Below, piece after piece: positions 7,753-57,937 of a DNA stretch of 64,000 bases. Every line of letters starts with the position of its first letter. The first letter of the stretch is position 1. The DNA is from Amphiscolops sp. MND2022 (taxonomy: Eukaryota), in contig OZ076409.1 of NCBI GenBank assembly GCA_964187785.1, positions 65,722,001 to 65,786,000 of the forward strand, given 5' to 3'. The position numbers were made by a program, and so were the translations under genes. The notes below the pieces were generated by a model. That model saw only the letters and a list, made by a program, of their open reading frames with translations. It did no database searches and had not been told where the DNA came from.

Positions 7753-7840
7753 AATAGTTGTAACTCCTCAATTTTATCCCTAAAACCTCAAAATACTAAG
7801 ATTTTTAACCGTTGTACCTTTGGGACACATTAATTTAAAT

Positions 7841-8202
7841 TGTTGCGTTCACAATAAGATTAAAATTGAACTGACCAATAACAAGGCGCTATGGCGAAAT
7901 AGGTTAGTGCGCTTTATTCTAAAGCCGTAGATCGCGGGTTCGAATCCCGGTAACTGAAAATATTTAGTACTTACAAAAATAGAAAAAATAAATGTTTTTC
8001 TATTCATTACTCATTTGCTATCTCGAAGTTATGTTTATTAATATTTGTCAACAACTGTATGCTCATTTATCAGTTTTGTCATTTTGTACAGATTAACTGT
8101 TTCGTCATTGTGGGCCGATAATACATTGAGAAATAGAGTGTTGCCTTTTTCCTATTTTTCAAATAGAGAAGACGAGATAACTGCCGAATGTTATTTCTTT
8201 TA
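7841..8202 (+). repeat. BEL/Pao 5' LTR (362 bp, TG...TA)
   Basis: Direct repeat of 16920-17280. Differences seen: one A indel and GAGAAG vs GAAGAG. Confidence 0.95.
7885..7956 (+). ncRNA. tRNA-derived module with Pol III A and B boxes inside the 5' LTR
   Basis: GGCGCTA TGGCGAAATAGGTTAGTGCG ... AGATC GCGGG TTCGAAT CCCGG with canonical tRNA spacing. Acceptor and anticodon stems do not pair canonically. First T5 run at 7995-7999. Confidence 0.7.
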
Positions 8203-8219
8203 TGGTGGCCATAGAGAGG
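8203..8219 (+). promoter_or_regulatory. Primer binding site of BEL element (possibly tRNA-Ile type)
   Basis: TGGTGGCCATAGAGAGG directly after the LTR. Its complement ends GGCCACCA like eukaryotic tRNA-Ile(AAU); the isotype is inferred. Confidence 0.85.
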
Positions 8220-9203
8220 CATTATCAAAAACCCATTTATGTTCAAAAATTCTTGTTCTTGTTTTCAATTTGCGTGAAACCTGGTTCAATGATTCCTCAA
8301 CCTGTGATATAACTTTCAGTGAATAATAATTAAGAAATTATAAGTTTGCATCTAGTCGACATTGCAGAAGGACTTTACTTTATTTCACTTGAAATGTGTA
8401 CCTGTTCTGTTCCCTCCAGTTGAATAATCCCTCAAGTGACCCAAATTATTTCTACTTTACTTACTGAGAATGACGAAAGCGGATCTGTTCTCACGCCATG
8501 CAAGGTGTCTTATCATTGGAACAACACGAAACAAATCCTTCAGCTTTCACTTGAATTTCAATCGGTGTTCCCTATATTTTGATTATTAGAGAAAAGCGTT
8601 ATCTTTGGCGTTGCCCCAAATCCTGGACAATTGAAAGATTCCCAACCGTCGCAGCCGCTGCCTGCGAACCAGAGGTCCCGGGATCGTTCCCTGGCGTCGA
8701 CGCCAAACGACGAAGCCACAGCAGCACTGGATCCAGTGGTATTTTTCCAAGGCCTCTTCAATCAAAGTGATCTTCAATCAAATCTGGATCCTTTTAACCA
8801 GTGACCACCGAAGCCCGACGGTAACCCTCGAAGGCTCGAAGGTGCCCCCGAACCCTGACGGTGCCCTCGGAACCCCCTCCGAAAGTACCCTAGAAGCCCC
8901 CGGTCGTGAGTAACTGAGAAAACTTGAAAAACTTAGCCCTTATATTATTTTAAAGTTCATTTTCGAGATAGCAAAACTTTCAGAATGAATTTCTAGGTAC
9001 AGGTACTCAATCTGTCCAAACAGTTGTTATAGATAAACTGTTCTATTGTCTGAATAGCGCACCAGAGTAAACCAGTTTTTCGAAAAAGTTTTCGAAAAAA
9101 CAAGTTTTCAAAAAAACAGTTTTTAGAAAGGAAAACATTTTGTCAATTTTCTAACGCTGCGCATTTTTCCTATAAGCGAAAGCAATCGATAAGGAAAAAA
9201 CAC

Positions 9204-9950
9204 ATGGTTTTCATATTAGCAGCTAGTTCTTTAAATCATGCTTTGGAAACATTAAGCACCGAAGAAAAAACTCGATATGACGACAAAATTTTTTCAATCC
9301 CGGGCCTGAGTCTGAACAAAAACACCAAAAATCCGAGAAAAATTGTTCAAAATTTGCTTTCCAAAGATCTGAAAGAGAAAAACAATATTGTTATATGGCA
9401 TGATGTTTTAAATAACAGCATTTCTCGACATGAAAGCAACAATTTTCAAGCACTAACTGCGTCACAATTGATTGATGAGTTGAAAGGCCTTCAGAACAAG
9501 CTCAGTGCTCTGGTTTATTGCCAACGACATCGCACGCCGAACATTTTTGAGGATTTGAATGTTTTGAAAACCGATCATAACATTGAAGTATTCAGCATCG
9601 TGGAGGATTTCATTTCGTCGAAAAAACAAAAGAATCCGGAACTTTTGAAAAAATATAAGGCTTTACACCAGAGTCCTGAACTCGATCTGAAAAGTCTTGA
9701 TTTCATTCTACGGAAAGAAAATCAACTATCCGCCATCACCGACAAAAGCCGTCAAAGAGGCCTAGCAAGCGTGCCCGCAACGCTGCAAAAAGGGCTTCCC
9801 CGAACACTTCTCAGTGAACACCGCCCCCCCCATACCTTGTTAACCGTTGTAGAGACAGTGTCCAAACTTAATTGTTTGGTTGAAATCTCTACTCGCAATC
9901 CTTCGTCTTCAGGGTTGTGTCCAGTCTTCATTGACTGGTTGATACCTTGA
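9204..9950 (+). CDS. Accessory ORF of BEL element, SGNH/GDSL-hydrolase-like fold (3' end possibly frameshifted)
   Basis: ATG-initiated ORF between PBS and gag. VFILAASSL, SIPGLSL, IVIWHDVLNNSI and KALHQSPE occur in the order and spacing of SGNH blocks I, II, III, V. Confidence 0.65.
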   Translation: MVFILAASSLNHALETLSTEEKTRYDDKIFSIPGLSLNKNTKNPRKIVQNLLSKDLKEKNNIVIWHDVLNNSISRHESNNFQALTASQLIDELKGLQNKLSALVYCQRHRTPNIFEDLNVLKTDHNIEVFSIVEDFISSKKQKNPELLKKYKALHQSPELDLKSLDFILRKENQLSAITDKSRQRGLASVPATLQKGLPRTLLSEHRPPHTLLTVVETVSKLNCLVEISTRNPSSSGLCPVFIDWLIP

Positions 9951-10246
9951 AAACTCAGTCTTCGCCTTCCTCGACTGTCAGAATAGTGTCCGGACTTAAT
10001 TGACCGGTTGAAATCCTGGCAGTACCGTTCCCCTCTCACCTTTCCCACTGAGTTAGCGCCTTCAGCGCACCTTTAAGTCCTTTGTCTTCGTCCTCGTAGT
10101 CCCAGACTACTTTTAACCCAAACAAAAAAATCTTCCACGCTTCGTGCAGAAGCACTACTGTCAACCGTTACATTACTGGTAACAAAAGCCCCCTTTTTCG
10201 GATACTGATCCTTTTGGACTGTGTCCAGACTTAACTGTTTGGTTGA
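9858..10246 (+). promoter_or_regulatory. Four copies of a 26-nt hairpin motif upstream of gag
   Basis: GTGT-[6-bp stem]-TT(A/C)A(T/C)T-[stem]-TTGA at 9858, 9917, 9986 and 10221, with compensatory stem changes. Confidence 0.75.
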
Positions 10247-10306
10247 CGCCCAAAAAGATTCTGTTCCAATTTTGATTGAAGTTGTTTGACTAATTTCCGA
10301 TTAACG

Positions 10307-13300
10307 ATGACCGACCCCATGTTAGAGAAGGTTCAGAAGCTCCACGAAAGCCGTTTAAAGATCGAAACAGAGTTGAAAAAGTTCCAGAAAGATATCATCG
10401 ATGCCGTGAACAATTCTGAACGACGCGTTCGCGTTGAAAGATTAGTGACATATTGCAACGAAACAATGACTAAAGCCTTTGCGAAGAACGAGCAGCTGTT
10501 AGAGCTCGCAAAGAAGTCAAACGACCCAGTAACTATAACTGACGACCTAGAGAAGTGGTTAGATGATGTCACCGTGGAAAATGACAGAATACTGCAGAAA
10601 GCAAGGGAGTACATCGATCAATGTCCGCAATCCGAAAAGTCCTCCCAAACTTCACGGAAGGCAGCTACTGTCAAAACTAAATCTAGCAAAGTCTCAAGTT
10701 CTAAAATGTCCAAAACATCGAGTCAACGGCAACGAGATCTCGTTATTGCTCAGCAAAGACGTGCGGAGATTGAAAAGCAGAACGAAGCCGCACTACGTCT
10801 GTCAAAGCAAAAACAACAACTCGAACTTGAGCAACAAGAACTGGAACTGGTAAAACTCCGAAAGGAACAAGCTTTGAGAGTTGAGGAATTGGAAGAAGAA
10901 AACCGTCGAAAACTAGCAGAAGCAACTTTGACAGAAATGGCACTTCGAGACGATTTGTCCGATTCAAACACAGACTTTCACGAAACTCTGTCGCGCTTGA
11001 GCGCTTCTAGCAGAGGAAAGGAAACAGAGCGAATAAGCGATTGGATCAACAATTCGTCCAATGTTACTGAAGCTAACGCTCCACCTCCAGTCACCACTAC
11101 TACGACATCAGCTTCAAACAATGCTGTTACTAGCACAGCATCACTGCAATTCGTTGAGAACGGAACTGCTTGTCAGGTAGGCATAGCAAGTCAAGATCCT
11201 GCAGCTGTTTACGGCCCAGTTACTAGTGTTCCACCACCACTTCCGAATATTACACTTGTTCAGCAACCGGCTGCTTCTGTTTCACTTCAAAGCAACCCCA
11301 TGAATGTTATACCTTCCGTACCAATGACTGTTCAACCTCCCGTACCAACATTGAATCCGATGATAACAACAACGGCAACAATCACAACCAGTCCAGCCGT
11401 TCCACCAACGATTCCTGCACCTTTCAACCCAATTGTCAATGTGCCAGTGAGTCATGTAATTCCAAATCTGACCGCATGGACGTTTCCTCACGTACCTGTT
11501 ATTCCCTCTGTACAAACAAGTAGGCCACTACCGCAAAGTCAACCGACCCCAATCGCAGCAACAACCGCCTCTTTGGGTAGTACACCTCTACCGACAACAG
11601 TACCTATCTTGCCTGTCACGTGTGGAGGAACTGTTTATTACTTACCGCCACCAGTTGTAGCTACTCCAGCTGTTGCTAGTACATCAACTCAGCCGTCATC
11701 ACTGTTCCCCAGTGCGAATGCAACACCATTTGTGCCATCTTCAACAACTTCCGTGACCCAAACCAGTGTACCGAGCTTTACAATCCAAGACGTTGCACAA
11801 ATACTGGCTTCAACGAAGAAAGACCACCTACCAGAGTGGAAACTGTCTCAATATAGCGGCGACCCTATTCAATGGCATGAATGGTATGGACAGTTTAAGA
11901 GCGCCATTGACTCTGCCCCTCTGACAGATGATGTCAAGCTGACATATCTGAAAACATTGGTGACTGGGAAAGCTAAGGTCGCAATTGCCGAATTCGCCTA
12001 CTGTGGGGCCATGTACAAAGATGCCCTCAAGACACTTGAGCGCAAATTTGGACAACCTCAAGCAGTAGTGACTGCATACTTGGATAAACTTGCAAATGTA
12101 CCCCCGGTGAAAATGCACAACAGCGAGAGTATCATAAGCTACTCTGCAACTGTCAGTTCGTTAGTTGGCGTATTTCGATCGCTCAACTACAACCAAGACC
12201 TGTCAAGTGCATCACTACTCGGTCAAGCAGTGCAAAAGCTCCCACCAAACATGAAGGAGGCTTGGTCGATGCACACCGTTAAGCGTAGTTTAGATCGACC
12301 AACACTAATTGACTTCAATGAGTGGTTGAAAGATAAAGCTGAAGCTCATGAACGAATGAAGACTGCATCGGGCAAACCAAAGTCGGACGAAAATCCCCAA
12401 CCAAGTGTCAACAAAACCAAGACAACTTCGAAAGTGTTCGCGGCAACGACATCAAACAACCAACAAAACAGCACATTAAAACCAAAGTCCGACAGACTGC
12501 CAAATTGTGTGGCGTGTAAAGAGAAACATCCTCTGTGGAGATGTCCGGTGTTCCGTAAGAAAACTCCCACAGAGAGAGCAAAGTTAGTTGCCGACAACAA
12601 GCTTTGCTTCTCTTGTTTCAATCCCAATCATTCCTTCCGACAATGCCCGCAACCCCGCAAATGTACTAAAGAGAACTGTGAAAGCACTCACAACACGTTT
12701 TTACATGGGGCCGACCGGATCTTTCCGAATAAGAACCAAGTAACGAAACCACGAAATCCTGAATCTTCTACCTGTGTCGGAGCAACAAAGATAAGCGAGC
12801 AGTTAGAAACAACCTCAGGCCTACCTTCCGTCACGGACGTTAAGGGTCTTCTGCAGATAACGGAAGTCGAATTGCATTCTACAGCCGCCTCTGAAAAGGT
12901 TTTAGCGCTGTGCGATTCAGCCTGTAGCCATTCATGGATTTCTGCGAGATTGGCAAATAGATTGAAAGTTCAAGGCGTATCGACGAAACTTACTGTACAT
13001 GGGATTAACTCCCATCAAGTCATAAGTACGGAGATGGTGGAGCTCAAGTTGACACCGGTTCATTCGGGTGGCTCTTGCTCCCCTTCCACCAACAACCCAT
13101 ACGTCCGAGAAAATCTGAACGTGGGAACCGACACGATCGACGTGAACTACCTGAAAACTAAGTACCCACACTTGGAACCAATATCTTTGCAGAAGTACAG
13201 CTATGCCGACGTCGACATGATCCTAGGTCAGGACGTGTTTCACTTTATCCGCCCGCTGGAGTATTTCGATTTCGACCGTAAGAATACCCCAGTTGCCGTT

Positions 13301-16300
13301 CGTATACCGTTGGGCTGGGTATTGAGTGGACCTCTTCCATCAACTTCTGGATTTTATTCGACATGTTTTAAGGCTGTTTCTACTAAAAAAGACGTTGATT
13401 CAGAATTAGCTGACCAACTCCGTAGCTGGTATGATATGGAATCATACGGAGCATTCAAACAGGTAGACTCCCGCTCCGCTGCCGATGCGAGAGCGGAGAA
13501 GATACTTGACGACAAGACATACCACGACGGGTCCCGATACCAGGTGGGTATGCTTTGGGCTGAGGACGATAGTAGTTTACCGAACAACTACTTTTCGGCA
13601 CTCGTCCAGCTCAAGTCGCTAGAACGCCGTCTCGCGAAAGACGTAGATTTGAAAGAGCGATACTCCAAAACGATTCAGGACGACTTTTCAAAGGGGTACA
13701 TTGTGAACGTCGACAAAGGCGATTGTTTCAAAGTGAATGAAGTCCGCGAGTGGTACCTTCCGCACCACCCTGTAGTTCATCCCCACAAATCAGGCAAAGT
13801 TCGACGAGTGTTGAACGGCGCCGCCAGGTTTCAAGGGCAGTCCTTAAACAATTTGCTCTTAACCGGACCAGATTTATTACAGAATCTGATCCACATTTTG
13901 ATTCGATTCCGCCAACATCCACACGCTGTATCGGCTGACATTGAAGGAATGTTTTTACAAGTCGGTGTCATTCCAGACAATAGGCCTTCACTTCGTTTTC
14001 TGTGGCGCAAAGATCCAGCATCCGAAGTTGCTGTTTTTCAATATGTTCGTCACATCTTCGGATCCAAGGACTCCCCCACATGTGCGAACTATGCCCTGAG
14101 ACGAACAGCAACCGATAATGCATCACAGTTTCCCGAAGCCGCCCAAAGCGTCATCAACAATTTCTACATGGATGACTACTTGGAATCCAGCCCAACCGCA
14201 GAAGCTACCCGGAAAGCTAAAGATCTAGTGAATTTGCTTTCATTAGGTGGCTTTAAGCTAACGAAGTTCGTCTCAAACGTGTCTACCATTCCGCCACAGC
14301 TGGAAGCTGACCCCACATCACCAACCGAAGGTAAAGAAATCCCGAGCACCGAAAACTCGTCACATGTGTTGGGACTAAAGTGGAACCACAGTACCGACAC
14401 CCTCGTAGTCAGTCGTGGTACGAACCCTGAAGTCAAGCCAAAAGTAACTCAAAGGATCGTTCTGAGTTTAGTCTCTTCAGTGTACGACCCGATTGGACTT
14501 GTCGCACCGTATACCGTCAAAGCACGACTACTGCTAAAGGACATCTGGAGGCTAAGCGGACAACAATGGGATGACGACTTACCACCTGAAGTTGTAACCA
14601 AGTTCCTTGAATGGAGTGAAGAACTACCAGGCTTAAGCGACATTGTCATTCCACGAGCTTATTTCCAGGGAAAAGTCGAAACATTGGAACTTCACCTGTT
14701 TGGTGATAGTTCCCAAGACCTGTTCAGCGCTGTCGCGTTCCTACGTGCCAAGGTTGTCAAGAATGAAAACCAAGAACAAACACAACTCGCCTTTGTATTC
14801 GGAAAGGCCAGAGTCGCACCCATGAAAGCCTTGACAATTCCAAAACTTGAACTACAGGCTTCGTTACTAGCAGCAAGGCTTAGAAAAGAAATTGAGAAAG
14901 CCCTGTCACTGGAGATAAGTAAGACTTTCAAGTGGTCCGACAGCACAACTGTTCTGCAGTGGATACACTCTCTGGATAAGCAGCCAGTCTTCGTTGCGAA
15001 CCGCGTGGCGGAGATTTTGGACCTTACAACGACCGACGAGTGGAACTACGTAAAATCTAGCGAAAACCCTGCAGATGCAGGCACGCGAGGCCTGTCAGCG
15101 AAATCATTAGTGAGCAGCAGTTGGTTAAATGGACCGGAGTTTCTGAAAACGTCCGAGTGGCCGTTCAAACCATCGGAACCGCCAAAATTTAAACTGAAAC
15201 CTGACCTTAACGACCAAAGTACAGAAAAGCCTTCCCCCAAAAATGAGATTGTTCTCAGTTCCAATGTGGACATCAACACATCAACTTTCGAGTGGCATAA
15301 GTATAGCTCTTCCGAGAAACTTTTGCGTGTTGTTGCCTACCTGATGCGTCTCATTCCAAAAAATGAGGCCTACCGCTCCGAAACGGGTACCATTACAGAC
15401 CCAAGTGAACTTGAGAACGCACAAATGAAGCTTTCCTACCTGGCTCAATTGGAATCTTTCCCTATAGAAAAGAAGCTACTGCTGAAGAACTTCCCGCTCA
15501 GCAGATCCTCTAAACTTTTACAGTTCTCCCCCTTTGTTGGACCCAACGGTTTACTTCGAGCAACTGGTAGAACAAAGCAACTTGATGTATCTAGTTTTGA
15601 CGCAAAGCATCCCGTCTTACTGGACAGTCGCCATCCAGTTACACGTTTATTCCTCGAACAATTACACCGAGCTCATTGTCACCAAGGCGTGGACTACCTG
15701 AGAGCGTTGGTGCAGCAACAGTTTGCCATCGTCAAGCTTAGAACCGCCTTGAGATCAATAGTTCAAAGATGTGTAACTTGTCGAGCTGAGACTATCAGTC
15801 CGATGATGGCCGACCTTCCACGAGAAAGACTTGCATTCAAAGAACCTCCATTTACCAACACTGGCGTAGATTACTTTGGTCCTTTCTACGTTGCCGTGAG
15901 AAGATCGACTGAAAAAAGATGGGGATTCCTATTTACTTGTTTGACTACACGAGCTGTACACTTCGAAGTTGTGCCTTCCATGGACACTAGCAGCTGCATA
16001 ATGGGAATCGAGAGGTTTACAGCCCGCCGGGGTACCCCATCAGTTTTATGGTCGGACAACGGAACCAACTTTATAGCCAGTGAAAAAGAACTCCTACAGA
16101 ACATTTCCAGGTGGAACCAACAATTCTTATCTGAAAAACTTGTCAAGAAACGTATACTCTGGAAGTTCAAACCACCTAGTGCCCCTCACCATGGAGGCAT
16201 CTGGGAACGAGTGGTTAGAAGTTTTAAGCACGTTTTCTACGCAATTCTCGGAAACAGACGCTTAACTGATGAGATCTTGATAACCACGTTTTGCCTTGTT

Positions 16301-16720
16301 GAAAAAAGTCTGAACGCACGACCGTTAGTTCCAGCTAGCCCTGATGCCACAGATTTGGACGCTTTGACCTCAAACCACTTTTTGTTAGGAACTGCGGGTT
16401 CCGTTTTACCGTCGCATCAGCGTGCTGAAATTGACCATCGAAAACGCTATGTGCGGGAACAAGCCTATTCTGACGCCATATGGTATCGATGGTTGAAAGA
16501 GTATGTGCCTACGCTTAACAGACGTCCGAAATGGTCCAACCAGCCAGAGAGACAACTCAAGACCGGAGACCTAGTTTGGATCGTCGAGCCAACGAGTCCA
16601 AGAGGACATTATCCACTAGGTCAAGTTGTTAAATTGAATTTCGGCAGCGATGCCGTTGCGCGTTCTGCTGAAGTAAAGACCAGTACCGGTTGTCTTGTTC
16701 GTCCCGTTGTGAAGTTATGA
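10307..16720 (+). CDS. BEL/Pao gag-pol polyprotein
   Basis: First ATG at 10307. Gag core (YSGDPIQWHEWYGQF), three Cys/His knuckles (CVAC..H..C, CFSC..H..C, C..C..H..H), protease LCDSACS, RT (ADIEGMFLQV, YMDD), Pao RNase H (LHLFGDSS, KARVAP) and integrase (H..H..CVTC, DYFG, SDNG, WER). The terminal TGA may be slightly premature (VVKL*SVLP). Confidence 0.96.
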   Translation: MTDPMLEKVQKLHESRLKIETELKKFQKDIIDAVNNSERRVRVERLVTYCNETMTKAFAKNEQLLELAKKSNDPVTITDDLEKWLDDVTVENDRILQKAREYIDQCPQSEKSSQTSRKAATVKTKSSKVSSSKMSKTSSQRQRDLVIAQQRRAEIEKQNEAALRLSKQKQQLELEQQELELVKLRKEQALRVEELEEENRRKLAEATLTEMALRDDLSDSNTDFHETLSRLSASSRGKETERISDWINNSSNVTEANAPPPVTTTTTSASNNAVTSTASLQFVENGTACQVGIASQDPAAVYGPVTSVPPPLPNITLVQQPAASVSLQSNPMNVIPSVPMTVQPPVPTLNPMITTTATITTSPAVPPTIPAPFNPIVNVPVSHVIPNLTAWTFPHVPVIPSVQTSRPLPQSQPTPIAATTASLGSTPLPTTVPILPVTCGGTVYYLPPPVVATPAVASTSTQPSSLFPSANATPFVPSSTTSVTQTSVPSFTIQDVAQILASTKKDHLPEWKLSQYSGDPIQWHEWYGQFKSAIDSAPLTDDVKLTYLKTLVTGKAKVAIAEFAYCGAMYKDALKTLERKFGQPQAVVTAYLDKLANVPPVKMHNSESIISYSATVSSLVGVFRSLNYNQDLSSASLLGQAVQKLPPNMKEAWSMHTVKRSLDRPTLIDFNEWLKDKAEAHERMKTASGKPKSDENPQPSVNKTKTTSKVFAATTSNNQQNSTLKPKSDRLPNCVACKEKHPLWRCPVFRKKTPTERAKLVADNKLCFSCFNPNHSFRQCPQPRKCTKENCESTHNTFLHGADRIFPNKNQVTKPRNPESSTCVGATKISEQLETTSGLPSVTDVKGLLQITEVELHSTAASEKVLALCDSACSHSWISARLANRLKVQGVSTKLTVHGINSHQVISTEMVELKLTPVHSGGSCSPSTNNPYVRENLNVGTDTIDVNYLKTKYPHLEPISLQKYSYADVDMILGQDVFHFIRPLEYFDFDRKNTPVAVRIPLGWVLSGPLPSTSGFYSTCFKAVSTKKDVDSELADQLRSWYDMESYGAFKQVDSRSAADARAEKILDDKTYHDGSRYQVGMLWAEDDSSLPNNYFSALVQLKSLERRLAKDVDLKERYSKTIQDDFSKGYIVNVDKGDCFKVNEVREWYLPHHPVVHPHKSGKVRRVLNGAARFQGQSLNNLLLTGPDLLQNLIHILIRFRQHPHAVSADIEGMFLQVGVIPDNRPSLRFLWRKDPASEVAVFQYVRHIFGSKDSPTCANYALRRTATDNASQFPEAAQSVINNFYMDDYLESSPTAEATRKAKDLVNLLSLGGFKLTKFVSNVSTIPPQLEADPTSPTEGKEIPSTENSSHVLGLKWNHSTDTLVVSRGTNPEVKPKVTQRIVLSLVSSVYDPIGLVAPYTVKARLLLKDIWRLSGQQWDDDLPPEVVTKFLEWSEELPGLSDIVIPRAYFQGKVETLELHLFGDSSQDLFSAVAFLRAKVVKNENQEQTQLAFVFGKARVAPMKALTIPKLELQASLLAARLRKEIEKALSLEISKTFKWSDSTTVLQWIHSLDKQPVFVANRVAEILDLTTTDEWNYVKSSENPADAGTRGLSAKSLVSSSWLNGPEFLKTSEWPFKPSEPPKFKLKPDLNDQSTEKPSPKNEIVLSSNVDINTSTFEWHKYSSSEKLLRVVAYLMRLIPKNEAYRSETGTITDPSELENAQMKLSYLAQLESFPIEKKLLLKNFPLSRSSKLLQFSPFVGPNGLLRATGRTKQLDVSSFDAKHPVLLDSRHPVTRLFLEQLHRAHCHQGVDYLRALVQQQFAIVKLRTALRSIVQRCVTCRAETISPMMADLPRERLAFKEPPFTNTGVDYFGPFYVAVRRSTEKRWGFLFTCLTTRAVHFEVVPSMDTSSCIMGIERFTARRGTPSVLWSDNGTNFIASEKELLQNISRWNQQFLSEKLVKKRILWKFKPPSAPHHGGIWERVVRSFKHVFYAILGNRRLTDEILITTFCLVEKSLNARPLVPASPDATDLDALTSNHFLLGTAGSVLPSHQRAEIDHRKRYVREQAYSDAIWYRWLKEYVPTLNRRPKWSNQPERQLKTGDLVWIVEPTSPRGHYPLGQVVKLNFGSDAVARSAEVKTSTGCLVRPVVKL

Positions 16721-16919
16721 TCCGTCCTACCAGTTCCCGATTCCGAATCCTATTAGTTTCATTATTCGATCCCGAAAATTTGATTGTATTTATTTAACAT
16801 TAATCACTGAAACGAATAACATTTAACATGTAATCTGAACATCCACGTAAGTAAACCTTTTTGTGCAAAAAAAGTTATTTTTGTTTTAAAAAAAATCTCA
16901 TCTTCTCGAGCCCGGAGGA

Positions 16920-17280
16920 TGTTGCGTTCACAATAAGATTAAAATTGAACTGACCAATAACAAGGCGCTATGGCGAAATAGGTTAGTGCGCTTTATTCTA
17001 AAGCCGTAGATCGCGGGTTCGAATCCCGGTAACTGAAAATATTTAGTACTTACAAAAATAGAAAAAATAATGTTTTTCTATTCATTACTCATTTGCTATC
17101 TCGAAGTTATGTTTATTAATATTTGTCAACAACTGTATGCTCATTTATCAGTTTTGTCATTTTGTACAGATTAACTGTTTCGTCATTGTGGGCCGATAAT
17201 ACATTGAGAAATAGAGTGTTGCCTTTTTCCTATTTTTCAAATAGAAGAGACGAGATAACTGCCGAATGTTATTTCTTTTA
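16920..17280 (+). repeat. BEL/Pao 3' LTR (361 bp)
   Basis: Copy of 7841-8202, preceded by a short PPT-like CCCGGAGGA and followed by TSD TAAAT. Confidence 0.95.
16964..17035 (+). ncRNA. tRNA-derived A/B-box module in the 3' LTR
   Basis: Same sequence as 7885-7956. Confidence 0.7.
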
Positions 17281-18171
17281 TAAATGCTGGTTGACGAAAA
17301 ACTCTAATTTAGAATTCTGTTTTAAAGTTTATATGGCCTTGAGACGCACTGCAGAGATATTACCGTGTGCCTGGTTTGGCAAAATATGCGCACCGTAGCA
17401 CAATAAATATTCCTGGTTTGTATTCCGATGAGATAGTGTTCAGCAAGTGAGACATCCTACGTCTCATAAACTTGATAGCCCCTCCCGGAGTTATAGCAAA
17501 GGGAGCTGATAAAAAATTCAGGGCTGTTCTTTTATGTTGAATGATTGACTACTACCGCTGGCGAGTTATAGATTTCCAGTTTCCATCGTTTCATTAATTC
17601 ATGCCTAATTTTCTTTTGTGAAACTGGTCACATATTACAGGTGACCAAATGGAAAAAATATAATCTAGACGCGTGATGAAAAGCCCAAAAATTACACAAA
17701 TCACAAAATCATACTTCAAAATTTACAAAATCATTGAGAGTTTTTCATTTGGCACCGATTGAGAGATATTGAAAATAACAAAGCTCTTTGATTTCAAGAA
17801 CCGAAAAAGGTAAACGACAAAAAAGCCTCGCATTGTGTTTTATGAAAAAATATTAGAGCACGATATTCCCCAGCCGTACTTCTGAACAAGAAGAAGAATA
17901 AAAGGCTTGCAAATATGCTGGAAAGCCTCACTTAATTGAGTTTATGGCTGAAGAAACTTTATGGTATTAGGAGGGACGCCCCTATCAGTTTACTTTACAT
18001 CAATTTCATCAGAAATTATAAAATTCAGCGACAACGTGGTTCTTGTTGTAATAGTGAACTTAATATTGTACTTGGGAAGAGGTTATGGAAGAGTTTATGG
18101 GTGCATTTAAGCCAGCACTTGTATAGTTTTGAATAAATGGTCTTTAGACCTTGAGAAAATCGAGATATATG

Positions 18172-25045: not shown

Positions 25046-26118
25046 AAACAGTGTAAAATTGAGAGAAAGGAGGAAGTTTACTTTTCCGGTTGCTACAGTT
25101 TCTGCCTTTCTATGTCAATGCACGTTTCAGATATTATCTCTCCAACTTAAGCTAAGTTACCATATTTGCAGCGAAGGTGTCAAGCCATGTCCGATTTGGA
25201 ACTGTGGTTTCGAAGTGCCTTCTTTAAAGTCTTAAAGGTTGCTCATTCCATTTCTGATTTCTCCGACATTTGAGTTTTTAGTTTTGACCATTTTCTAAGC
25301 TGGGTACGAAGGATCTGCTGAAATCCCAAAGATCACGAGGTGACTGATTTTTGGTGATACCGAACGGATACAGGTCTAGTGTTCCAAAAACTAAACTATA
25401 ATACTAATAACTCAAAACAATTGTTCTCTAAACAAAAGTTTGCTTAGTAGCTATATTGTTTAATTTCCATATCTCGAGATCCTATCATCGGAATCGGAAA
25501 CATCGAAAAATGAAAAAAACTATGAAAAAACGAAAAAATTGACCTTGCTTGGTTCAATTTAGGCATTTTTTTCCAAATACAGTTCCAATATTTTCCACAA
25601 AATAATGCTAAGGAGCCACAAAATTCATTCTTGAATAAGCATTCAAAAACTGCTGAAGAAGGATCAAAACTGGGAATGTTTCGTCATTTTCGTCCACTTT
25701 GATGCCATTTCGAGGCAATTTTTGTAGCCAGCATTAAAAAGTTGCCACTTTTCTCCGCAAATGCATAAGGTACGGTACGTATATGCGTTTATGATAGTTG
25801 AATTTTGTGTCGGAACCGCTATCATTTGAAGATAAAACTGGAATATGGCCAAGTGCCTCACAAGTGTTTGTATCCAGGGAACCTAACTCTTCAAAAAATA
25901 CTCAGTTTCTGTCAGTAGTAGCAGTCTATGCTGGAATGCTTATCCAATATTCTATTTTGACGAATGAATAGCTTTTAATTCAACTTCTTTTAAAATTTGT
26001 ATTTTAGGGTCTGCCTCTAAGAAAAGTTTTTTCTGGGAGTCCTGTTTGAAGTCTGATTTGAATAATGTTTGTGTATCTCTGCACTGACTGAATATGTGAT
26101 TTCAAGCTTTTTTCCAAA

Positions 26119-26826
26119 TGTAACGTCCGGCTAGCGGCGCACATCTAGGAAGAGGGATAATGCCTAGGATGCTTAAACAGGAGACCGTTGTCTTACTACA
26201 TACCTAGACACTAGTTTTTCATCCCAAAATGGTCTCCATGGGGGACTTTTCTAACGTCTAAGGAGACTCCTCTAATTAGAGCTCCGAGGCAACGCGCCGG
26301 CACTCTCAAAGTCCGGACACGCCCCACAAGCCTGTAAAAACGTATCCTAAGGTTTTAGCGCGTTCCTGCCATCTCCTACATACTTCCGAGGTCCAAAAGG
26401 GTGTTTATCCGAAAATTGTCATTTCAACAGTCATGGGCATGAAATGCCGACCTAGAAGGTCAGGCATGGGAAAAATAGCAAAATACATTAACATAAATCA
26501 ACAAAATCAAGGGGATAAGCCCCGAGTGGGAATGGAGTTACTGTTTGTGGGTTCTCGGGGATCCGATCATGTAGTTCTGGAGTGGCTCTGCTCTCCCAGG
26601 GAGGACACAGCACCGGGTAACGTTCTTTGAATTCTATCCCATGGATCTTCATGTCGTCAGTCGTCTACTTCTTTTTCTTCTTCTGTCTTTCTTCTTGTTC
26701 ACTCGTTCTCTCTTTCTTTTTTATGGGCTTTAAGGACCTGCCAGGTCGGCCATTTTGATTCGCACCTTTTTTGGTTCTTGAACGAATTTTTCAACGAAAA
26801 TTTGGTATTGACTGGTGGACGTTACA
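26119..26826 (-). repeat. Gypsy 3' LTR (708 bp)
   Basis: TGTAACGTCC...GGACGTTACA perfect 10-bp terminal inverted repeat. No differences from 44462-45169 seen by eye. Confidence 0.97.
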
Positions 26827-26840
26827 TCCTCCCCGGGCCG
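26827..26840 (-). promoter_or_regulatory. Polypurine-tract-like plus-strand primer site
   Basis: Minus strand CGGCCCGGGGAGGA immediately before the TGTAAC of the 3' LTR. Confidence 0.65.
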
Positions 26841-27410
26841 TAGTTTGTCGTCCTCGGCAAACGAGAGGATGCTCGCACCCAAAGGGTACTCTGAGGTCCA
26901 CAGAAAAGGTCTTATGTCAAAGTTACGTTGATATCACACTATTATTCTTTTCGCCTCACTACTACATGTCTAGCACCTTAAAGCCATCGAATTCAAAAAG
27001 CACTGATTTTTAAATTAAAAATTTTGCAGTCGGATTCTTTCTTTAAAAGGTTTTTTCACTAACTACTCAGTTCAAGTTAAAATTTCTTTTTCTAAAATAG
27101 GGCCCCTGCGCGGCCAGATGAGTAATAACAACTTTTGGGCTTGGTAGAAGTTTCCAATTCAAATCAAAACGGGAGGGCACCGAGCCGGGACCCACCCAGA
27201 GGATGTAACTATATTGCATTGTTACAATGGTAGCAAAGTATAATATACATCAAACAAAACTCAGGAATTAAGGTTTATTGCACTGAAAGTTTTCAGCACC
27301 AGTAAGATGGTATAGCACAACTAAAATCAAGAATTGGCATTAATATATTGACGACAGGGTCCTTTATGCTCAATTATGTTCTAACAGTCTTGAGGGTCCA
27401 GAGGACTCCT

Positions 27411-30400
27411 TTATTCCAGCAGTTGATCCTGTGGGGTTTCTTGGACTGAGGTGTTGCCCATGGCATCCACTGTGTTCTGATACTCTTCGTCTATTGTCAG
27501 CAGATTATTGAGCTCTGACTCTATGTCCGCTGCCTCCAAGTTCGAGATATTGGTTTCCACTTCATCTCTTACAGGAGTGGTGGCGTCAGAGAACGTGAAG
27601 TTATTACCAGTCATAGGTTCCCCTGATGGTGGCATGACGTCTGGCACATCATCTTGTGCTCTTTCCACCAATATTTCATTGGAGTCTTGACTCACGTGGG
27701 GTGTGGGGAAGGCGGTGCGAGAGCTGCCAGAGGCAGCTTCGCTCAAATCGCTAATTCCCGGGATAGCTTCGAGTGATTCCAAGTTCGGCAAACCGTCCGC
27801 TAATTCTTGGTGGCCATATTGGATGAACAGCTGCCTGAACGTTCGTATTCCCCTAGCGTACTCTTCGCCCACTGCTCGAGTACGTTCTCGTTGGAGACCA
27901 TGCAGGCGCACGAATATCTCTAGTGCCATACGCGGATTGCTGGGAACGTCAGTGTTCACGGGCAAATCTTTCTTGCTTGGTTCCTTGGCTACTGTCGGAA
28001 TAGTTGTCGGCAGCTGTTGGAAGGTCTGGTGTATAGCGAGGTCCACGAGCTCCGGCTGGGCCCAACACGTAATGGTATTCAAGATTCTGGCGGTGTGCTC
28101 GCGGGGCTCTGTCCTCGCACAATATATTCTGGAAGTGTCACACGCATAGGGATACAATAACCTAGTAGGTTCTTCTCCTTTTCGACGACCACCCAATCTT
28201 TGGATAATTGTTCTCAAGATACGCAGGACAACTGGCACGTCCCACCCTTCGAATGTCGCCACTGCTCCATTATTTGGATCAATAGGGGTGTGCAGCCAAA
28301 CTACAGGATGGATTTCCATCGGCAAAGGGAGCGAGCTACGTGCTCTCGCCTTGATCAAGGAGAGATAGTTGTGTTCCACTTGTTGGCGGTCTTTGATTAC
28401 GGTATACGCCATGGGAGGTCGCAAGTTGGCAAAGCTGTGTATCACTGATTGATAGGTGGGACCCTGAAGGGGCCCATCAGAGGTCACGAAATGTAGAATC
28501 GAGAGGGAAGGGCTCACTGCTGCCACTCGCAGGGTTTGCGTTGGATAGCGTAGGGCCATGACTGCGCCGAAGATGGGCCAGACTATCGGAGCAATGAGGG
28601 GCATTAGGTCCTCTGTTTCTACGAGCATTAGTGTTGCAACTTGTGTAGGGAACAGGAACCCAGGAAGTTGATTGGGGTCTCGGTTAATAGCTGGGCACTC
28701 ATCCAGAGGATGCATAACGCCCGAGACATTGACCCAGGTGGAATAAATCCACACTAGCAGTGCTTGAACGTTTAAGTCCAGCTGCGTCTTTAATTTCAAG
28801 GAACCCGCTGGGTCTAGGGTTTCAATGAGCGCAGATATCCAACCTCTTTGATTCTGCGAGAAGACTAGGAAGCTGAACAGGGCTGAGCCTCCCTTGTTGA
28901 GCACGAACTTTTGTATGAGGGCCGATGGTCCTCTGTACATCATGGTTAACCCCACGGCCATCAGGTACGCTAGTAGTTCACTAACGGTCGCTCTTTCCAT
29001 GGCCTCCATGTAGAGTCGCATTCGCTGCTCATCTAGGCCGTACTCGGCTTGTACTAAGGAAGGAAGCCAGAAGGGAGAGATGTTGTGGAGAAATACGGGA
29101 AATGTTATACCCAGTCGGTCCGCGACTTGGCCCAAAGGTTCTCGTAGTTGATCGTGCCATGTTTGGTACGTGTGTGTCGGCTCTTGAATATTCTTTTGTA
29201 CAACGTCTCGAGCCAGTATCAACAGCATGGCCAATGTCGGCGATCTTTGCCCAGGTTCAACATCTAATGATATTTGAGCCATGGGGAAGATGGAGGAATT
29301 CTTTCTATCACCCAGAACCGTCTCGGTTTCTTTCATTAGCTTTGTGAGTTCCTTGTGAAACTTGGGTTCGTGTGTTTTTTCGTCTACAGTTGACTCGTCC
29401 CGGCGTTCAAACCAGAGGTTATCCACCAGGTTATTGCGCTCACTTTCGTTTGGGTCGTTTACGATTCTGTCTCCACGTTCATTCAATGATCGGCGAGCCA
29501 TTTCCATCCCGTAGTCGAATGCTGCTGCTTCATCCACTACCATTTGGGAGTTTCCACGGTAACCGACGTATGATTGAAGGGCCTTTGAGACTTCAGCAAT
29601 GAAGGCTGGGTAAGAGGCTTCACAAGGGCGCCAGCTATTATTGCTGATGCGTAAATTGGGGGCCACAATGTAAAAGGCCAGATCTCTTGCGTACGCTGCC
29701 TCCATTACTAGGTATAAGAATTGCTGAAGGGTCCGAGGAAGGTGCATGTAGCCTGGAGGCGACATAAATACCGTTCCAGTGACAGCTTTCCTTCTGCGCA
29801 TAATTTGGGCAATATTCGCCATTGTCTCCACGTAGTTGGTCACTTCGTCGGTGACGAACCCCTCAGTAAATCTTTCGTGGTCTGGTCGGAAAAATTCCAA
29901 GGTCCCTCGCAAAGCGAGGTGATCTATAACATTTGAATATACCAGCAACGGAGGTAATGGGATGGTCTCTGTTCCCGCTTGGGTGAATACTTTGTCGGTC
30001 ACTTCTGCCATTTCGTTCAGTGTTGTACAGGGCATGTTCATTATTCTGACATCCATAAGGGTGTTGTGAGAGTTGAATGAAGACTTCATCGTCGAGTCGA
30101 CGAAGAAGGCTATTCTGGTTTTCTGCAAGAGATCCTTTCCCATGGGCAGGATTGTAATGGGGTCCCTCGCATAGTTTTTTGTTCGCAAGCGGTCTTCGTC
30201 GAAGCGGCCAGGGCGCTGTCGGAGGAAGTTGTCAGGAATACGCATGTATGTCGAGTTCACTCTCTCCAATTCTGCTCGCATGCGATTGAACCATGGGGGG
30301 CATCCATCTTGAGTGAACACTGGTTTCTTGACGGGACGATTGTAGAGTACTCCCACTGTGGCTTTTTCTATTTTCTGCCTTGTGGCGTAGTCCCCAGTTC

Positions 30401-31505
30401 CCGTTGAGGTCTCGAATTTCTGTCGTAGAGGGTCTTCTGGTGGCGTTGTGGTTGGTATTTCCCGCTGCAGACGCAGTGCGTCGCGTGCAGTGATATCCAG
30501 CTGCCGTTTTTCCGAATGTGTTAGGAGTTCGTGTGTTATTCTCGGTCTCCTTGTTTCTGGTTGCGTAGGTGAGGCAGACAAGGGTTGCGGGGCACTGGTC
30601 GAGCTCGATTGTTTGCTTTGCATGGTCGCCTCTCTGGCTCGCTTTCCAGCTTTTATTTTCTCCCGGAGGTCTACCACAGTGTTGGCTGCCTTACTTTCTG
30701 CTTTTTGTTGTTCTCGCTGACGTTCTCGGAATTGTGGGTCCATTTGGAAGCCTACTAGGCTAGCTGGTTCTGAGGCTTGTGGAGGTTCCGAGACTTGAGA
30801 TTCGGTTCTGGAAGACGTCTGAGTTAATTCTTCATATGAATCTTTGAACGTCACCGTTCTCCTGGGCTGTTCTTCGCTCAGGGTAGCACTTGCTGTATTG
30901 TCTACTTGCACCCCTCCCCCCTGAAAGGTAGATGGAGGCATGAAGGTAGAGGATGGGGTGGTCAGTAGGCGAATGCCTTCCGATGCCAGGGGCATGGGCG
31001 GTGTTAGTACTGGGGGTGGCACGATTGGCAAAGTGCAGCTGAACTGCACCGGGTGCGGTGAGGGCAACGGGGTCGTAGTTTGCGTCTGTAATGTCTGTAG
31101 TGCTGACTGTGAAATACGGAGTGATCGTTCTTGATCCATGGGAGGCCTGGTAGGTTCTCCATAGACTACGTGAGAGCGAGGGTCTATGAGGCTATGGGTC
31201 AAGTCATACCCTTGCCAGGTGCCGTCGCGAAAAGTGGCGGAGCGTTCTATCGGGCCGACTCGGCTGGTGATAGTGAAGCTAATATCAGGGTACTCAGCTT
31301 GAGCTTGGGTTTGGGCGATGATCATGGCAAAGCCAGTAATCATTGTAGGTGTCGCTCCGTTTAGAAGGGTGTCTTGGACGAGGGCTAGCTGGTCGACTCG
31401 ACCATCTATCTCGCTCATCATTGGAGGTGGGTCGTTCCTAGTGGATGGTTGGGCACGCGCAGCGTTCTGGGGTGCAGGCAGGCGGTGTCGCGCAGATGGG
31501 TCCAT
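27411..31505 (-). CDS. Env-position accessory protein (1364 aa from first ATG) with central SGNH-like domain
   Basis: Intact ORF between pol and the 3' LTR. Low-complexity P/S/T N-terminus; RIAFFVDST, MNMPCTTL, LLVYSNVID, VFMSPPG, SWRPCEASYPAFIAEVSKAL (about 29575-30120); then a helical/hydrophobic region and an acidic tail. No signal peptide. The ORF is certain; the domain call is by eye. Confidence 0.85.
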   Translation of the reverse strand: MDPSARHRLPAPQNAARAQPSTRNDPPPMMSEIDGRVDQLALVQDTLLNGATPTMITGFAMIIAQTQAQAEYPDISFTITSRVGPIERSATFRDGTWQGYDLTHSLIDPRSHVVYGEPTRPPMDQERSLRISQSALQTLQTQTTTPLPSPHPVQFSCTLPIVPPPVLTPPMPLASEGIRLLTTPSSTFMPPSTFQGGGVQVDNTASATLSEEQPRRTVTFKDSYEELTQTSSRTESQVSEPPQASEPASLVGFQMDPQFRERQREQQKAESKAANTVVDLREKIKAGKRAREATMQSKQSSSTSAPQPLSASPTQPETRRPRITHELLTHSEKRQLDITARDALRLQREIPTTTPPEDPLRQKFETSTGTGDYATRQKIEKATVGVLYNRPVKKPVFTQDGCPPWFNRMRAELERVNSTYMRIPDNFLRQRPGRFDEDRLRTKNYARDPITILPMGKDLLQKTRIAFFVDSTMKSSFNSHNTLMDVRIMNMPCTTLNEMAEVTDKVFTQAGTETIPLPPLLVYSNVIDHLALRGTLEFFRPDHERFTEGFVTDEVTNYVETMANIAQIMRRRKAVTGTVFMSPPGYMHLPRTLQQFLYLVMEAAYARDLAFYIVAPNLRISNNSWRPCEASYPAFIAEVSKALQSYVGYRGNSQMVVDEAAAFDYGMEMARRSLNERGDRIVNDPNESERNNLVDNLWFERRDESTVDEKTHEPKFHKELTKLMKETETVLGDRKNSSIFPMAQISLDVEPGQRSPTLAMLLILARDVVQKNIQEPTHTYQTWHDQLREPLGQVADRLGITFPVFLHNISPFWLPSLVQAEYGLDEQRMRLYMEAMERATVSELLAYLMAVGLTMMYRGPSALIQKFVLNKGGSALFSFLVFSQNQRGWISALIETLDPAGSLKLKTQLDLNVQALLVWIYSTWVNVSGVMHPLDECPAINRDPNQLPGFLFPTQVATLMLVETEDLMPLIAPIVWPIFGAVMALRYPTQTLRVAAVSPSLSILHFVTSDGPLQGPTYQSVIHSFANLRPPMAYTVIKDRQQVEHNYLSLIKARARSSLPLPMEIHPVVWLHTPIDPNNGAVATFEGWDVPVVLRILRTIIQRLGGRRKGEEPTRLLYPYACDTSRIYCARTEPREHTARILNTITCWAQPELVDLAIHQTFQQLPTTIPTVAKEPSKKDLPVNTDVPSNPRMALEIFVRLHGLQRERTRAVGEEYARGIRTFRQLFIQYGHQELADGLPNLESLEAIPGISDLSEAASGSSRTAFPTPHVSQDSNEILVERAQDDVPDVMPPSGEPMTGNNFTFSDATTPVRDEVETNISNLEAADIESELNNLLTIDEEYQNTVDAMGNTSVQETPQDQLLE

Positions 31506-31835
31506 TGGAAACGATAATAAAGGGATGTTTAGCACCGAAGATTGTGATGGCAAGACTGATTTGGCGTGATAAGTATGGGGGCCGCGCAGAGGCGAGGCAA
31601 CAGGACAAAACTGAAAAACAGGTCACAGTTGGAGATAAGACATCACATAGACGGGTGGGCAGTTAAGCTCTTTAGGACGAACACACAAACATAAGGTTAA
31701 AAAGTTACAGTGGTTAGTATTAAAATTTGCGCTTGTCGGCGCGGTTTTGTTAAAATTTTAAAGTGCTTCGAATCAACTACAGGCAGTGCAAAAGGCCAGT
31801 GGCCTGATATGCCAAGTAGAGGGCGAGACGTGCTC

Positions 31836-34800
31836 TTAACTACCGCCAAAGTTGGCAGAGGTAATCGACGCTATTGTGACATAGACGCGATCGTGCAAGA
31901 CTATTGTTATGTTGTGATCTGCAAAGTGGTCGCGTAGGGTGGCGTACCAGGCTGGGAGGAGGTTCATCGATCGCTCAGGATCATAGATGGGCAAGTGGAT
32001 TCTGGTAATGTGGTTTCGATGGAGTTGAGTTATCAAATTCGTCAAACACGCATGTAATACCTCATGTAAGAGCGGATGCTTGTTTGATGCTCTGGTACAC
32101 AGAAGGAAGATTTCGTTATTCCAGGGTGCAGTTGGCGAGCGGGTTAAGCGAATTGCGGTGCCAACTGATGGTCTTAGACGAAATATGTTTTCTTGACCGT
32201 ATTCGCGAATGACGTAACGGATCGTAGCCGAGTAAGAGAACAAATCCGCAGGGCAGCATAATATTACGGTGCCAGGTGCCTGCAGGATATCTGTGTCGTC
32301 ATAGCTTATCCAAGGTAAGTAATTCGGTCTGGTTTTAGGCTGGGTTATGAGCCATTTGCCGGTGGTTCTGCTCTGATCATCGGTGGGTCGGGGTGTCAAA
32401 TGCTGCAAGATTGCTTTTCGGTCTTCCCAGACGGTTCGTCGTAGAGGTCTATCTCCCAAGTTTGTGGATGACCAATCGTGTACTATTGAGAGTGCTTCGC
32501 TAATTGTCACGGGTTTTTCTGGTGTATAAGATTGTCGATCCAGGAAGTGTATCTTCGCCTGCCGGCAAAAGACTACCGCTATTAACTGTAGCCAGTGTTG
32601 GCTTAGGAACTTGCCACGATAAATATCGGCCATGTGGAAACAAAGCGTGTTCTCAGGTTCGGTTACCGTACGTAAACTTTCTAAGCACATCAGTAAAGTT
32701 GTTGGAGATACCAATGTCGTTGCGTCTAGAGAGGTGACAAGTAGCCACCATCCATTGGTGGGCTGATATATGTCTCCCGGCGGGGAGGCAATGTGATATT
32801 TCTCCCACAGTTGGTGTGCAGTGATACAGCGAATCATCTCCGGGCTACTATCCTCTTTTGCTAGCTCGCCGAACGTCATCGATGGTGGCAAAGGTGGTAT
32901 GATGGCATGTAGGGTGAATTCTAGACCGCCCCGATGGGGAAGTGTCCATTCTTTGAATCGGTAAGTCGGGCAGTCAGAGGGAGATGTCGCGTGCATCGCT
33001 TTGAGTGTTTCTTCCAGTGGTGGTATCGCTTCTCGTTCCACACTGGTGAAAGTTTTTTCTACCGTGATGACCAAATGGTGCACTAGCGGGGGTGTCTCCA
33101 CCTTTTCTCGTTGGGCTTGCACGGCTAAGATCTCATGTTGTGGGTGACAATGTGTCCTAGCCATAAAGAGATCCCTGGCAGGGACTACTGCTCCCCGGGC
33201 CAATCGGTCGTCCGGTGACTGGCGAGTCAGATGCTTGACGCAACTACAGTTGCGGGAACCACAGGTTCCACACTTGTAACGTGGTGCTCTGTTAGCTCGC
33301 AGTTGATATCGTGATGTTCGCGATGATGGTCTTGATTCTGAATCCTGGACATCTGGTGGTTGTTGGCTTTCGGGTATTTCTGGTAGAGTCATCGCTCGGT
33401 CTAGTTTTCGAGGGGGTGCACGAGTGCTCGTTCTTGCTCTGGGGCCTCTTCTGGGTCGTGCGGTTTGGGTTCGTGACGATGTTGTGGTTCTAGTAGATGG
33501 TATAGCGCGGGATTTTCCTCTACCCGGTGGTCGGCCTCGAGGCCGTCCTCTACTATTCGTGGTATTGGGTTGCGTTGAGCAATGGCTTGGACTGCGATGG
33601 GTTGTCTCTTCCTCATTCTCAGTTTCTGACTTTGGTTTATTTTCTATCGGGTCGATCGGGTTCTCTAGTTGGGGGCCAAACAAGGGAAAGTTACTCAGGG
33701 TGTCTGTTAGGGACGGATTGGATAGTAGGGGGGCTGAGGTCCCTGAGGGTGATGGTATCAGACTTGTAGGTACGGCCGGCTGAATTTCCTCCTGGTCGGA
33801 GTACAGTGGTTCCAGGTCGTCTAAGTCGGGGAACACTACTGGCGGTGGTGGGCTCTGAATCGGTGGTTCATTTTCCTCTGTTTCGGAATCTGAGTTGGAG
33901 GGGTACCCGAAGTGGCTGAATCTTCTTCTGGGTATTCCTTGTTCGAGTGCCGTTTGGGTACGAGTCTGAATGGTACGAGGTGGAATCGATCCTGTCGGTT
34001 CCATTTCGAAGGATGCTTCCGGAAGTTGTTCCGGTAGGAAAGAGTCTTGGGAGATGTCGGACGCTATCTCTTCATTGCTTTCTTCTACGTACGGATCAGC
34101 AATAATGGCTACGTTTTGATTCGGCCCAAAGGGCTGGTGTGCGGCCCAGTCCCAAGGGGCAGGCACATGCTTTTTCAATCTTTCGTAGTGGACCTTTTGG
34201 CCAGTGTCTAGTACGTATAATCGTCCGTCCTGCAACACGTCGGTTACCTTGTGGGGTCCGCGCCATGCGCGAATCAGCTTGCGGGTGCCACCCTTGGGTA
34301 TGATATGGCAGAACACCCACACCGCATCGCCTACAGCATGCGCTTTGGCCTTCAGGTGGCGGTCAAACTTCAGCTTCTGGCGTAGCTGTGCTTGGTGTGT
34401 ATTTCTTCTGACGAGTTCATGGATTTCTTGCTGTCTGGCTAGAAGATGTTCTACGAATTCTTCTTTGGAATCGAATCCTCGGGCAGCAAATTCTGGGTAG
34501 ATGAATGACAGGGGAATTGATTTCTCGGCTCCGTGTTGGAGCATATAGGGAGAGAATCCAGTGGTTGCGTGTCTAGTTGAATTGTACGCACCGAGGATTC
34601 CATCAATATGCTCATCCCAATCCTGCATTCGTCGAGAAGTGTAGACTCTCAGCAGTGTGAGTAACGTTCGGTTCTGCCTTTCCACGAGTCCATTCCCTCG
34701 AGGATGCGCTGGAGTGGATGTCACTTTAGTGACTTGCGAGGCTTTCATTAGCTCCTGTGCGATTTCAGCTGTGAAATTCGTGGCATTGTCGGATTGCATC

Positions 34801-44428: not shown

Positions 44429-44445
44429 TCCCTCTGTGGTCGCCA
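44429..44445 (-). promoter_or_regulatory. Primer binding site (tRNA-Arg type), 16 nt from the LTR
   Basis: Minus strand TGGCGACCACAGAGGGA. Its complement ..GTGGTCGCCA resembles tRNA-Arg 3' ends; the isotype is inferred. Confidence 0.75.
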
Positions 44446-44461
44446 TAAAAACTATTCCAGA

Positions 44462-45169
44462 TGTAACGTCCGGCTAGCGGCGCACATCTAGGAAGAGGGA
44501 TAATGCCTAGGATGCTTAAACAGGAGACCGTTGTCTTACTACATACCTAGACACTAGTTTTTCATCCCAAAATGGTCTCCATGGGGGACTTTTCTAACGT
44601 CTAAGGAGACTCCTCTAATTAGAGCTCCGAGGCAACGCGCCGGCACTCTCAAAGTCCGGACACGCCCCACAAGCCTGTAAAAACGTATCCTAAGGTTTTA
44701 GCGCGTTCCTGCCATCTCCTACATACTTCCGAGGTCCAAAAGGGTGTTTATCCGAAAATTGTCATTTCAACAGTCATGGGCATGAAATGCCGACCTAGAA
44801 GGTCAGGCATGGGAAAAATAGCAAAATACATTAACATAAATCAACAAAATCAAGGGGATAAGCCCCGAGTGGGAATGGAGTTACTGTTTGTGGGTTCTCG
44901 GGGATCCGATCATGTAGTTCTGGAGTGGCTCTGCTCTCCCAGGGAGGACACAGCACCGGGTAACGTTCTTTGAATTCTATCCCATGGATCTTCATGTCGT
45001 CAGTCGTCTACTTCTTTTTCTTCTTCTGTCTTTCTTCTTGTTCACTCGTTCTCTCTTTCTTTTTTATGGGCTTTAAGGACCTGCCAGGTCGGCCATTTTG
45101 ATTCGCACCTTTTTTGGTTCTTGAACGAATTTTTCAACGAAAATTTGGTATTGACTGGTGGACGTTACA
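44462..45169 (-). repeat. Gypsy 5' LTR (708 bp)
   Basis: Direct repeat of 26119-26826. Confidence 0.97.
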
Positions 45170-57845: not shown

Positions 57846-57937
57846 CTCCTCCTTCTTTGCTTTCTTGGCCATCTCTGTTCGGGTATATGTTAACACAAAA
57901 ATTTAGGGTTGTAGTTCGTTAGATGTTGTTTGTAGTT

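Follow-up and report, generated by a model that had tools for sequence, protein, structure and literature searches.

The closest known family to the element described here is Helenus (Kojima 2024, PMC10886601), a group of non-coding TRIMs with a length of 311–1263 bp. According to that paper, each of the two LTRs of Helenus and TRIMp3 contains a tRNA-derived sequence equipped with boxes A and B, conservation is centred on these boxes, and the unit is usually neither a functional tRNA nor the primer; in bivalve Helenus-3 it starts at LTR position 45 (PMC10886601 supplement). Helenus presumably relies on Pol III for its transcription and on Gypsy or Copia for its mobilisation; the paper states that the autonomous partners have to use Pol II, and that 'not a few' LTRs in Repbase resemble tRNA, the study itself being confined to TRIMs (PMC10886601). 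As its screen retained TRIMs only, autonomous cases may sit unreported in Repbase. Two further systems come close in other respects. Foamy virus, an autonomous retroelement that uses Pol II for its genomic RNA, has units of A box, B box and terminator within its LTR, and experiments have shown that these units produce hairpin miRNA precursors (PMC3993851). The tDNA/TFIIIC barrier insulators have intact A and B boxes beside a Pol II promoter, the known cases being host loci (PMC10530723).

In the window, which means the whole stretch of 64 kb analysed here, a tRNA-derived cassette was found in both LTRs of a young BEL/Pao retrotransposon. The layout of the LTR, including the start of the unit at position 45, the conservation centred on the boxes and the absence of a tRNA or primer function, is that of Helenus. 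Helenus elements, in contrast, are defined as non-autonomous and non-coding, with a length of up to about 1.3 kb, which does not describe an element of 9.4 kb with an ORF of 2146 aa. Template RNA made by Pol III is a further trait of Helenus. Here the coding strand carries 19 runs of five or more T and 59 of four or more, the first at 110 nt, so that, judged by the sequence, the genomic RNA cannot be a Pol III product. Also in contrast to Helenus, the cassette is optional and exchanged between relatives. Whereas the foamy virus units give rise to hairpin precursors, the cassette is tRNA-derived and has no conserved hairpin; its relation to barrier insulators is putative. A literature search, in which most subscription papers lay outside coverage, found no description of such a cassette in BEL or other autonomous elements.

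The Host Element

The retrotransposon occupies positions 7841–17280 of the window, and the following features were assigned to it and its borders.

7836–7840 (+): 5′ target-site duplication TAAAT
7841–8202 (+): 5′ LTR, 362 bp, TG...TA
8203–8220 (+): primer-binding site (PBS), pairing with host tRNA-Ile(AAT) at its 3′ end
9054–9950 (+): extra ORF of 298 aa (stop to stop), conserved across the clade and GDSL/SGNH-like according to language-model features
10280–16720 (+): gag-pol ORF, 2146 aa, with DUF1759, Peptidase_A17, Integrase_H2C2 and DUF5641
16908–16919 (+): polypurine tract (PPT)
16920–17280 (+): 3′ LTR, 361 bp
17281–17285 (+): 3′ target-site duplication TAAAT

The earlier note had recognised an autonomous-type BEL element, and this assignment was confirmed by the combination of Peptidase_A17, DUF1759 and DUF5641 within one gag-pol frame with an LTR pair, a 5-bp target-site duplication, a tRNA PBS and a PPT, all of which are shared with BEL/Pao (Belpaoviridae). 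Peculiar in comparison with that family are the LTR cassette, the TG...TA end in many copies and the extra ORF. One indel and two mismatches separate the two LTRs. The PBS and host tRNA-Ile(AAT) are complementary over 18 nt; the tRNA-Ile T-arm/acceptor pattern matching it occurred 528 times in the genome, as compared to 0 for the control, and the array carrying this pattern was named tRNA-Ile by ARAGORN. Priming is therefore canonical. Inside the clade the PBS switches, independently of cassette type, to two other tRNA-type sites (L143–L147, L149, L150, L160, L166; L020). Language-model look-alikes of the extra ORF were GDSL/SGNH-like clusters (0.91–0.92) with Lipase_GDSL_2 in 30–46% of their members, and an ORF of this type was present in 40/40 clade elements, in 20/20 further clade or sister elements and in 1/20 distant BELs.

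Other repeats in the window include two Gypsy elements on the minus strand. The larger one (26112–44754, 18.6 kb) has identical LTRs of 300 bp, a gag-pol frame of 3299 aa and a second frame of 1403 aa without Pfam match, while the smaller one (57577–62954, 5.4 kb) has 270-bp LTRs which are 99% identical and a pol split in two frames. Near-perfect long hairpins with arms of 85 nt and 77 nt lie at 45417–45586 and 56877–57051.

The Cassette

7882–7885 (+): CAAG motif, its G corresponding to +1 of the tRNA; candidate Pol III start region
7885–7957 (+): tRNA-derived cassette, cloverleaf mostly lost
7892–7903 (+): A box TGGCGAAATAGG
7937–7948 (+): B box GGTTCGAATCCC
7995–7999 (+): first T5 run TTTTT, 109–110 nt from +1; candidate Pol III terminator, not distinctive
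8015–8027 (+): conserved LTR core motif TTGCTATCTCGAA; candidate Pol II core or R start
16964–17036 (+): second cassette copy, with A box at 16971–16982, B box at 17016–17027 and T5 run at 17073–17077

An A box and a B box at tRNA spacing, duplicated in the second LTR, had been reported before and were found as described: the distance between the boxes is 45 nt, as compared to 44 nt in a host tRNA-Arg gene, and a box-pair regular expression run over the 64-kb window hit exactly two sites, which are the two BEL LTR cassettes, the LTRs of both Gypsy elements being free of it. Against an A/B box consensus the window cassette scored 17/17, a value reached by 0/150 dinucleotide shuffles when the full LTR was shuffled and by 0/1000 when its first 200 nt were. 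The TTTTT run pointed out in the earlier note is present, but as a terminator it does not stand out, the LTRs being AT-rich, with A4 runs equally close and T4 runs kept in LTRs that lack the module.

Comparison with tRNA sequences established the cassette as tRNA-derived. For the window type itself the likeness is faint. ARAGORN called no tRNA gene in it, Rfam gave a weak match to the T arm and nothing more, its fold was no better than that of shuffles (z −0.27), and its acceptor stem has 3/7 pairs; a functional tRNA gene is thereby ruled out. The tRNA-likeness asserted in the earlier note was borne out for a sibling LTR type, which passed the Rfam RF00005 cut-off in 3/7 tested loci (L242, 41.1 bits; L241, 37.9 bits; L239, 35.2 bits). 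Two of these were also recovered by a genome-wide RF00005 search, and ARAGORN called a tRNA in 2/30 loci of this type; a relaxed ARAGORN threshold yielded noise. L241 contains 26 consecutive bases identical to host tRNA-Lys(TTT), from the D arm to the anticodon loop, and the D arm of L256 is Arg-like. The best global identity of cassettes to the three host tRNA types compared was 56–71%. The window cassette reached a weak 70% with tRNA-Arg(TCT), barely above the 56–66% of other pairings with these three types, and its isotype is therefore uncertain. Host tRNA genes are clustered in large tandem arrays, each with a single isotype (Ile, Lys, Arg; G000:C3:50.9 Mb, C7:5.2–5.3 Mb, C8:47.9 Mb).

Distribution in the Clade and Beyond

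Relatives of the element were sampled in two ways. Forty were picked by pol similarity among 150 listed, long frames being preferred, and their 3′ LTRs contained a full cassette in 25 cases, a partly deleted one in one and none in 13; the remaining one was interrupted. A census anchored only on the PPT covered 62 of the first 64 distinct sites, a few of which overlap with the pol-selected set. It yielded 40 3′ LTRs with a box score of 15–17 and 22 with a score of 13 or less, none scoring 14. The earlier note had proposed to check whether all LTRs of the family have the cassette; 40/62 carry it, and the remaining 22/62 lack it. Genome-wide the PPT pattern had 285 forward-strand matches, which would correspond to roughly 570 3′ LTRs. 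In 34 of the 40 cassette-bearing census LTRs the A box falls at LTR position 51–61, and the spacing from A to B is 42–45 nt in 37. CAAG or TAAG precedes the +1 G, which is kept too, in 32/40, and a T4 run follows the B box within 70 nt in 39/40. In sequence the cassettes are diverse: at 85% identity the 40 fall into 23 types.

A quick maximum-likelihood tree with outgroups supported the clade with a value of 100. The cassette was present in 5/5 sampled members of its earliest branch, and cassette-less rows were nested at several places. Distant BEL lineages (about 31% Pol identity) had no cassette in the 14/20 with a readable LTR pair. Among nine sister-lineage elements at 55–61%, a tRNA-like unit was found in one, L351, where it is located at LTR position 97 and has a better acceptor stem; this is a young family with about 40 hits, and 30/30 of the hits read lie in LTRs. 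Of nine metagenome loci, L357 (57% Pol identity) was the only close relative with an LTR readable across the cassette region, that of L359 being cut at 87 nt. The L357 boxes, at LTR positions 52 and 95, are placed like those of the clade and have a score of 15 that was reached anywhere by 3/1000 shuffles; L358 (34%) had no cassette. Rfam and ARAGORN made no call in L351 or L357, and two ENA relatives at 62–65% identity had no close copy in this genome.

A pattern of CAAG, A box and B box matched 2523 times in the genome and 11 times in the control, a number which is not usable as an LTR count because it includes a non-LTR tandem array. This array (L200–L216, G000:C1:15.31–15.46 Mb) lies outside LTRs and consists of degenerate tRNA-like units, repeated every 610 bp, that combine CAAG and both boxes with an immediate T run; ARAGORN made no call in it. 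A 300-bp tandem repeat at G000:C1:99.34 Mb (L217) is built from the 5′ part of a clade LTR, cassette included. At four further loci on C1 (L218, L219, L234, L236) a clade-like LTR leader with cassette is contained in another repeat with near-identical flanks and no coding match nearby.

Conservation, Exchange, and Loss

The conservation of the boxes across the family, on which the earlier note's reading depended, was seen in an alignment of 13 LTR types built without box information. The share of the commonest letter was 0.97 in key box columns and 0.59 in the other cassette columns (permutation p 5e-5), as compared to 0.70 upstream and 0.63 downstream of the cassette. Within four groups of the same origin, which were picked by eye, 38/44 key box columns were constant versus 101/195 of the others (p 1.6e-5; single groups p 0.006–0.18). 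The acceptor stem retains at most 3/7 pairs in 16/23 cassette types. Box bases are thus selectively kept and the cloverleaf is mostly lost, a pattern expected of a DNA promoter rather than of a folded RNA. Part of the conservation could stem from repeated captures involving different tRNAs, as several variants of the A half resemble different host tRNAs (Lys, Arg).

The earlier note made no mention of the hypervariability of the cassette, of its exchange between relatives or of its dispensability. L348 and L349 are 99.2% identical in pol DNA and 66% in their cassettes, and the window element and L128 share 94% of pol and 60% of the cassette; conversely, L127 and L160 have 72% identity in pol and 92% in the cassette. 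This disagreement between the histories of cassette and pol indicates exchange between relatives. In L137 and L138 (pol 99.1%) the rest of the LTR is common, and the difference is the presence of the whole 96-nt cassette. Cassette-less LTRs form 11 types by their first 110 nt. Elements with and without cassette have a median LTR identity of 99.4% and 99.6%, and an ORF of at least 2000 aa is found in 15/26 of the former and 9/13 of the latter. As cassette-less copies are equally young and intact, the cassette is optional, and any benefit from it should be small or conditional.

Possible Function

The boxes are fixed while the rest drifts, is swapped or is often lost, which suggests an aid to the element's own promoter rather than the production of a working tRNA. 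The explanation preferred here, to which an even chance is given, is that a captured tRNA gene cut down to its promoter boxes binds TFIIIC/Pol III upstream of the Pol II promoter and acts on chromatin in cis. An old tRNA gene would have been captured into the LTR of an autonomous BEL/Pao clade and reduced to its internal promoter boxes. TFIIIC and TFIIIB would bind these boxes, a Pol III RNA of 95–125 nt may arise as a by-product, and the bound cassette would probably hold the adjoining Pol II promoter open or shield it from flanking silent chromatin. A TTGCTAT core motif is found about 110–155 nt past +1 in cassette-bearing LTRs and at LTR position 54–72 in cassette-less ones; as this downstream motif is also kept where the cassette is missing, the cassette is placed in U3 by inference. 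LTR sequence is copied to both ends in each round, and reverse-transcription recombination moves LTR parts between subfamilies; from its location the cassette would be replicated at both ends and passed on between subfamilies in the same way. Ty3 and TRE5 insert beside host tRNA genes. For the elements studied here, no credible tRNA gene was detected in the flanks of 220 LTR or element loci, where only three long-intron calls were made. TFIIIC-bound tRNA genes are known barriers (PMC10530723). A barrier needs mainly the B box, and transcription would account no less well for the retention of A box, +1 G and CAAG.

That the product matters in trans, as a Pol III RNA of about 95–125 nt or a fragment of it serving as small regulator or decoy, with rapid change between the boxes reflecting changing targets or an escape from sequence-specific silencing, is rather unlikely. 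It would agree with the retention of A box, B box, +1 G and upstream CAAG or TAAG together, with the T4 run in 39/40 LTRs, with the 23 types and with the precedent of the Pol III miRNA genes in foamy virus LTRs (PMC3993851). The types have, however, no sequence in common between the boxes and no conserved hairpin, stems being erratic and the window fold unstable, and T runs are not above the AT-rich background. Slightly less probable still is a mere passenger, that is, pieces of tRNA captured again and again, for instance by template switches onto packaged tRNAs, and then left to decay, with boxes that are common to all tRNAs. The frequent complete loss without visible cost, the D-arm halves resembling different host tRNAs in L241 and L256, and the different placement and better acceptor stem of the L351 unit would be accounted for in this way. 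Decay does not explain why columns outside the boxes are far more variable than key box columns within groups sharing derived features, why different types have non-tRNA flanks in common, or why the same LTR position is used in L357 at 57% Pol identity, and the 56–71% best identity to the three host tRNAs compared also speaks against it.

The remaining alternatives are far less probable. Genomic RNA made by Pol III from the cassette, as in the Cassandra and Helenus TRIMs, is suggested by the architecture, down to the unit start at LTR position 45 of bivalve Helenus-3 (PMC10886601 supplement), but is nearly refuted by the T runs, the need for a translatable mRNA and the transposition of cassette-less relatives; the alternative promoter considered in the earlier note, if meant for genomic RNA, is unsupported on account of the same 19 T runs. 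The idea that cassette RNA is a self-made primer of reverse transcription starts from a perfect 7-nt pairing of the window cassette with its own PBS. This pairing shrinks to just 4 nt in three other elements read, the PBS switches without a matching change of the cassette, and the 18-nt match to tRNA-Ile(AAT) contradicts the idea, which was rejected as highly improbable. Least credible of all is a recently inserted SINE confined to this copy or its subfamily, refuted for the window copy by the clade-wide position of the cassette: the SINE-like head is the one point in its favour, and the cassette occurs at the same place in 40/62 sampled clade 3′ LTRs. LTR sequence adjoined at least one side of 28/30 window-cassette hits, the other 2/30 having an LTR-like leader and being cut by another repeat, and 30/30 L351-type hits lay in LTRs. 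A free SINE source, which the earlier note had entertained, was not seen: among the 30 + 30 best-scoring loci there was no tRNA-derived SINE copy with its own TSD and tail outside LTRs. An ancient SINE is a possible first source of the cassette.

Significance

Returning to the cis-acting TFIIIC/Pol III site, a tentative extension would be that a long-lived autonomous BEL lineage carries a portable 'safe harbour' of this kind in place of insertion next to host tRNA genes, escapes sequence-specific silencing by varying the stretch between the boxes and acts as a source of Helenus-type TRIMs. Such TRIMs may then originate by internal deletion and not by SINE insertion. LTR cassettes are also a caution about false tRNA calls. 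Promoters derived from small RNAs were previously known in LTRs of non-coding TRIMs and were not expected to be common to autonomous elements; here such a cassette seems to be under selection, in coding elements that number in the hundreds. As near-identical natural pairs with, without or with different cassettes are present in one genome, the effect of a Pol III site on a Pol II retroelement promoter should be directly testable.
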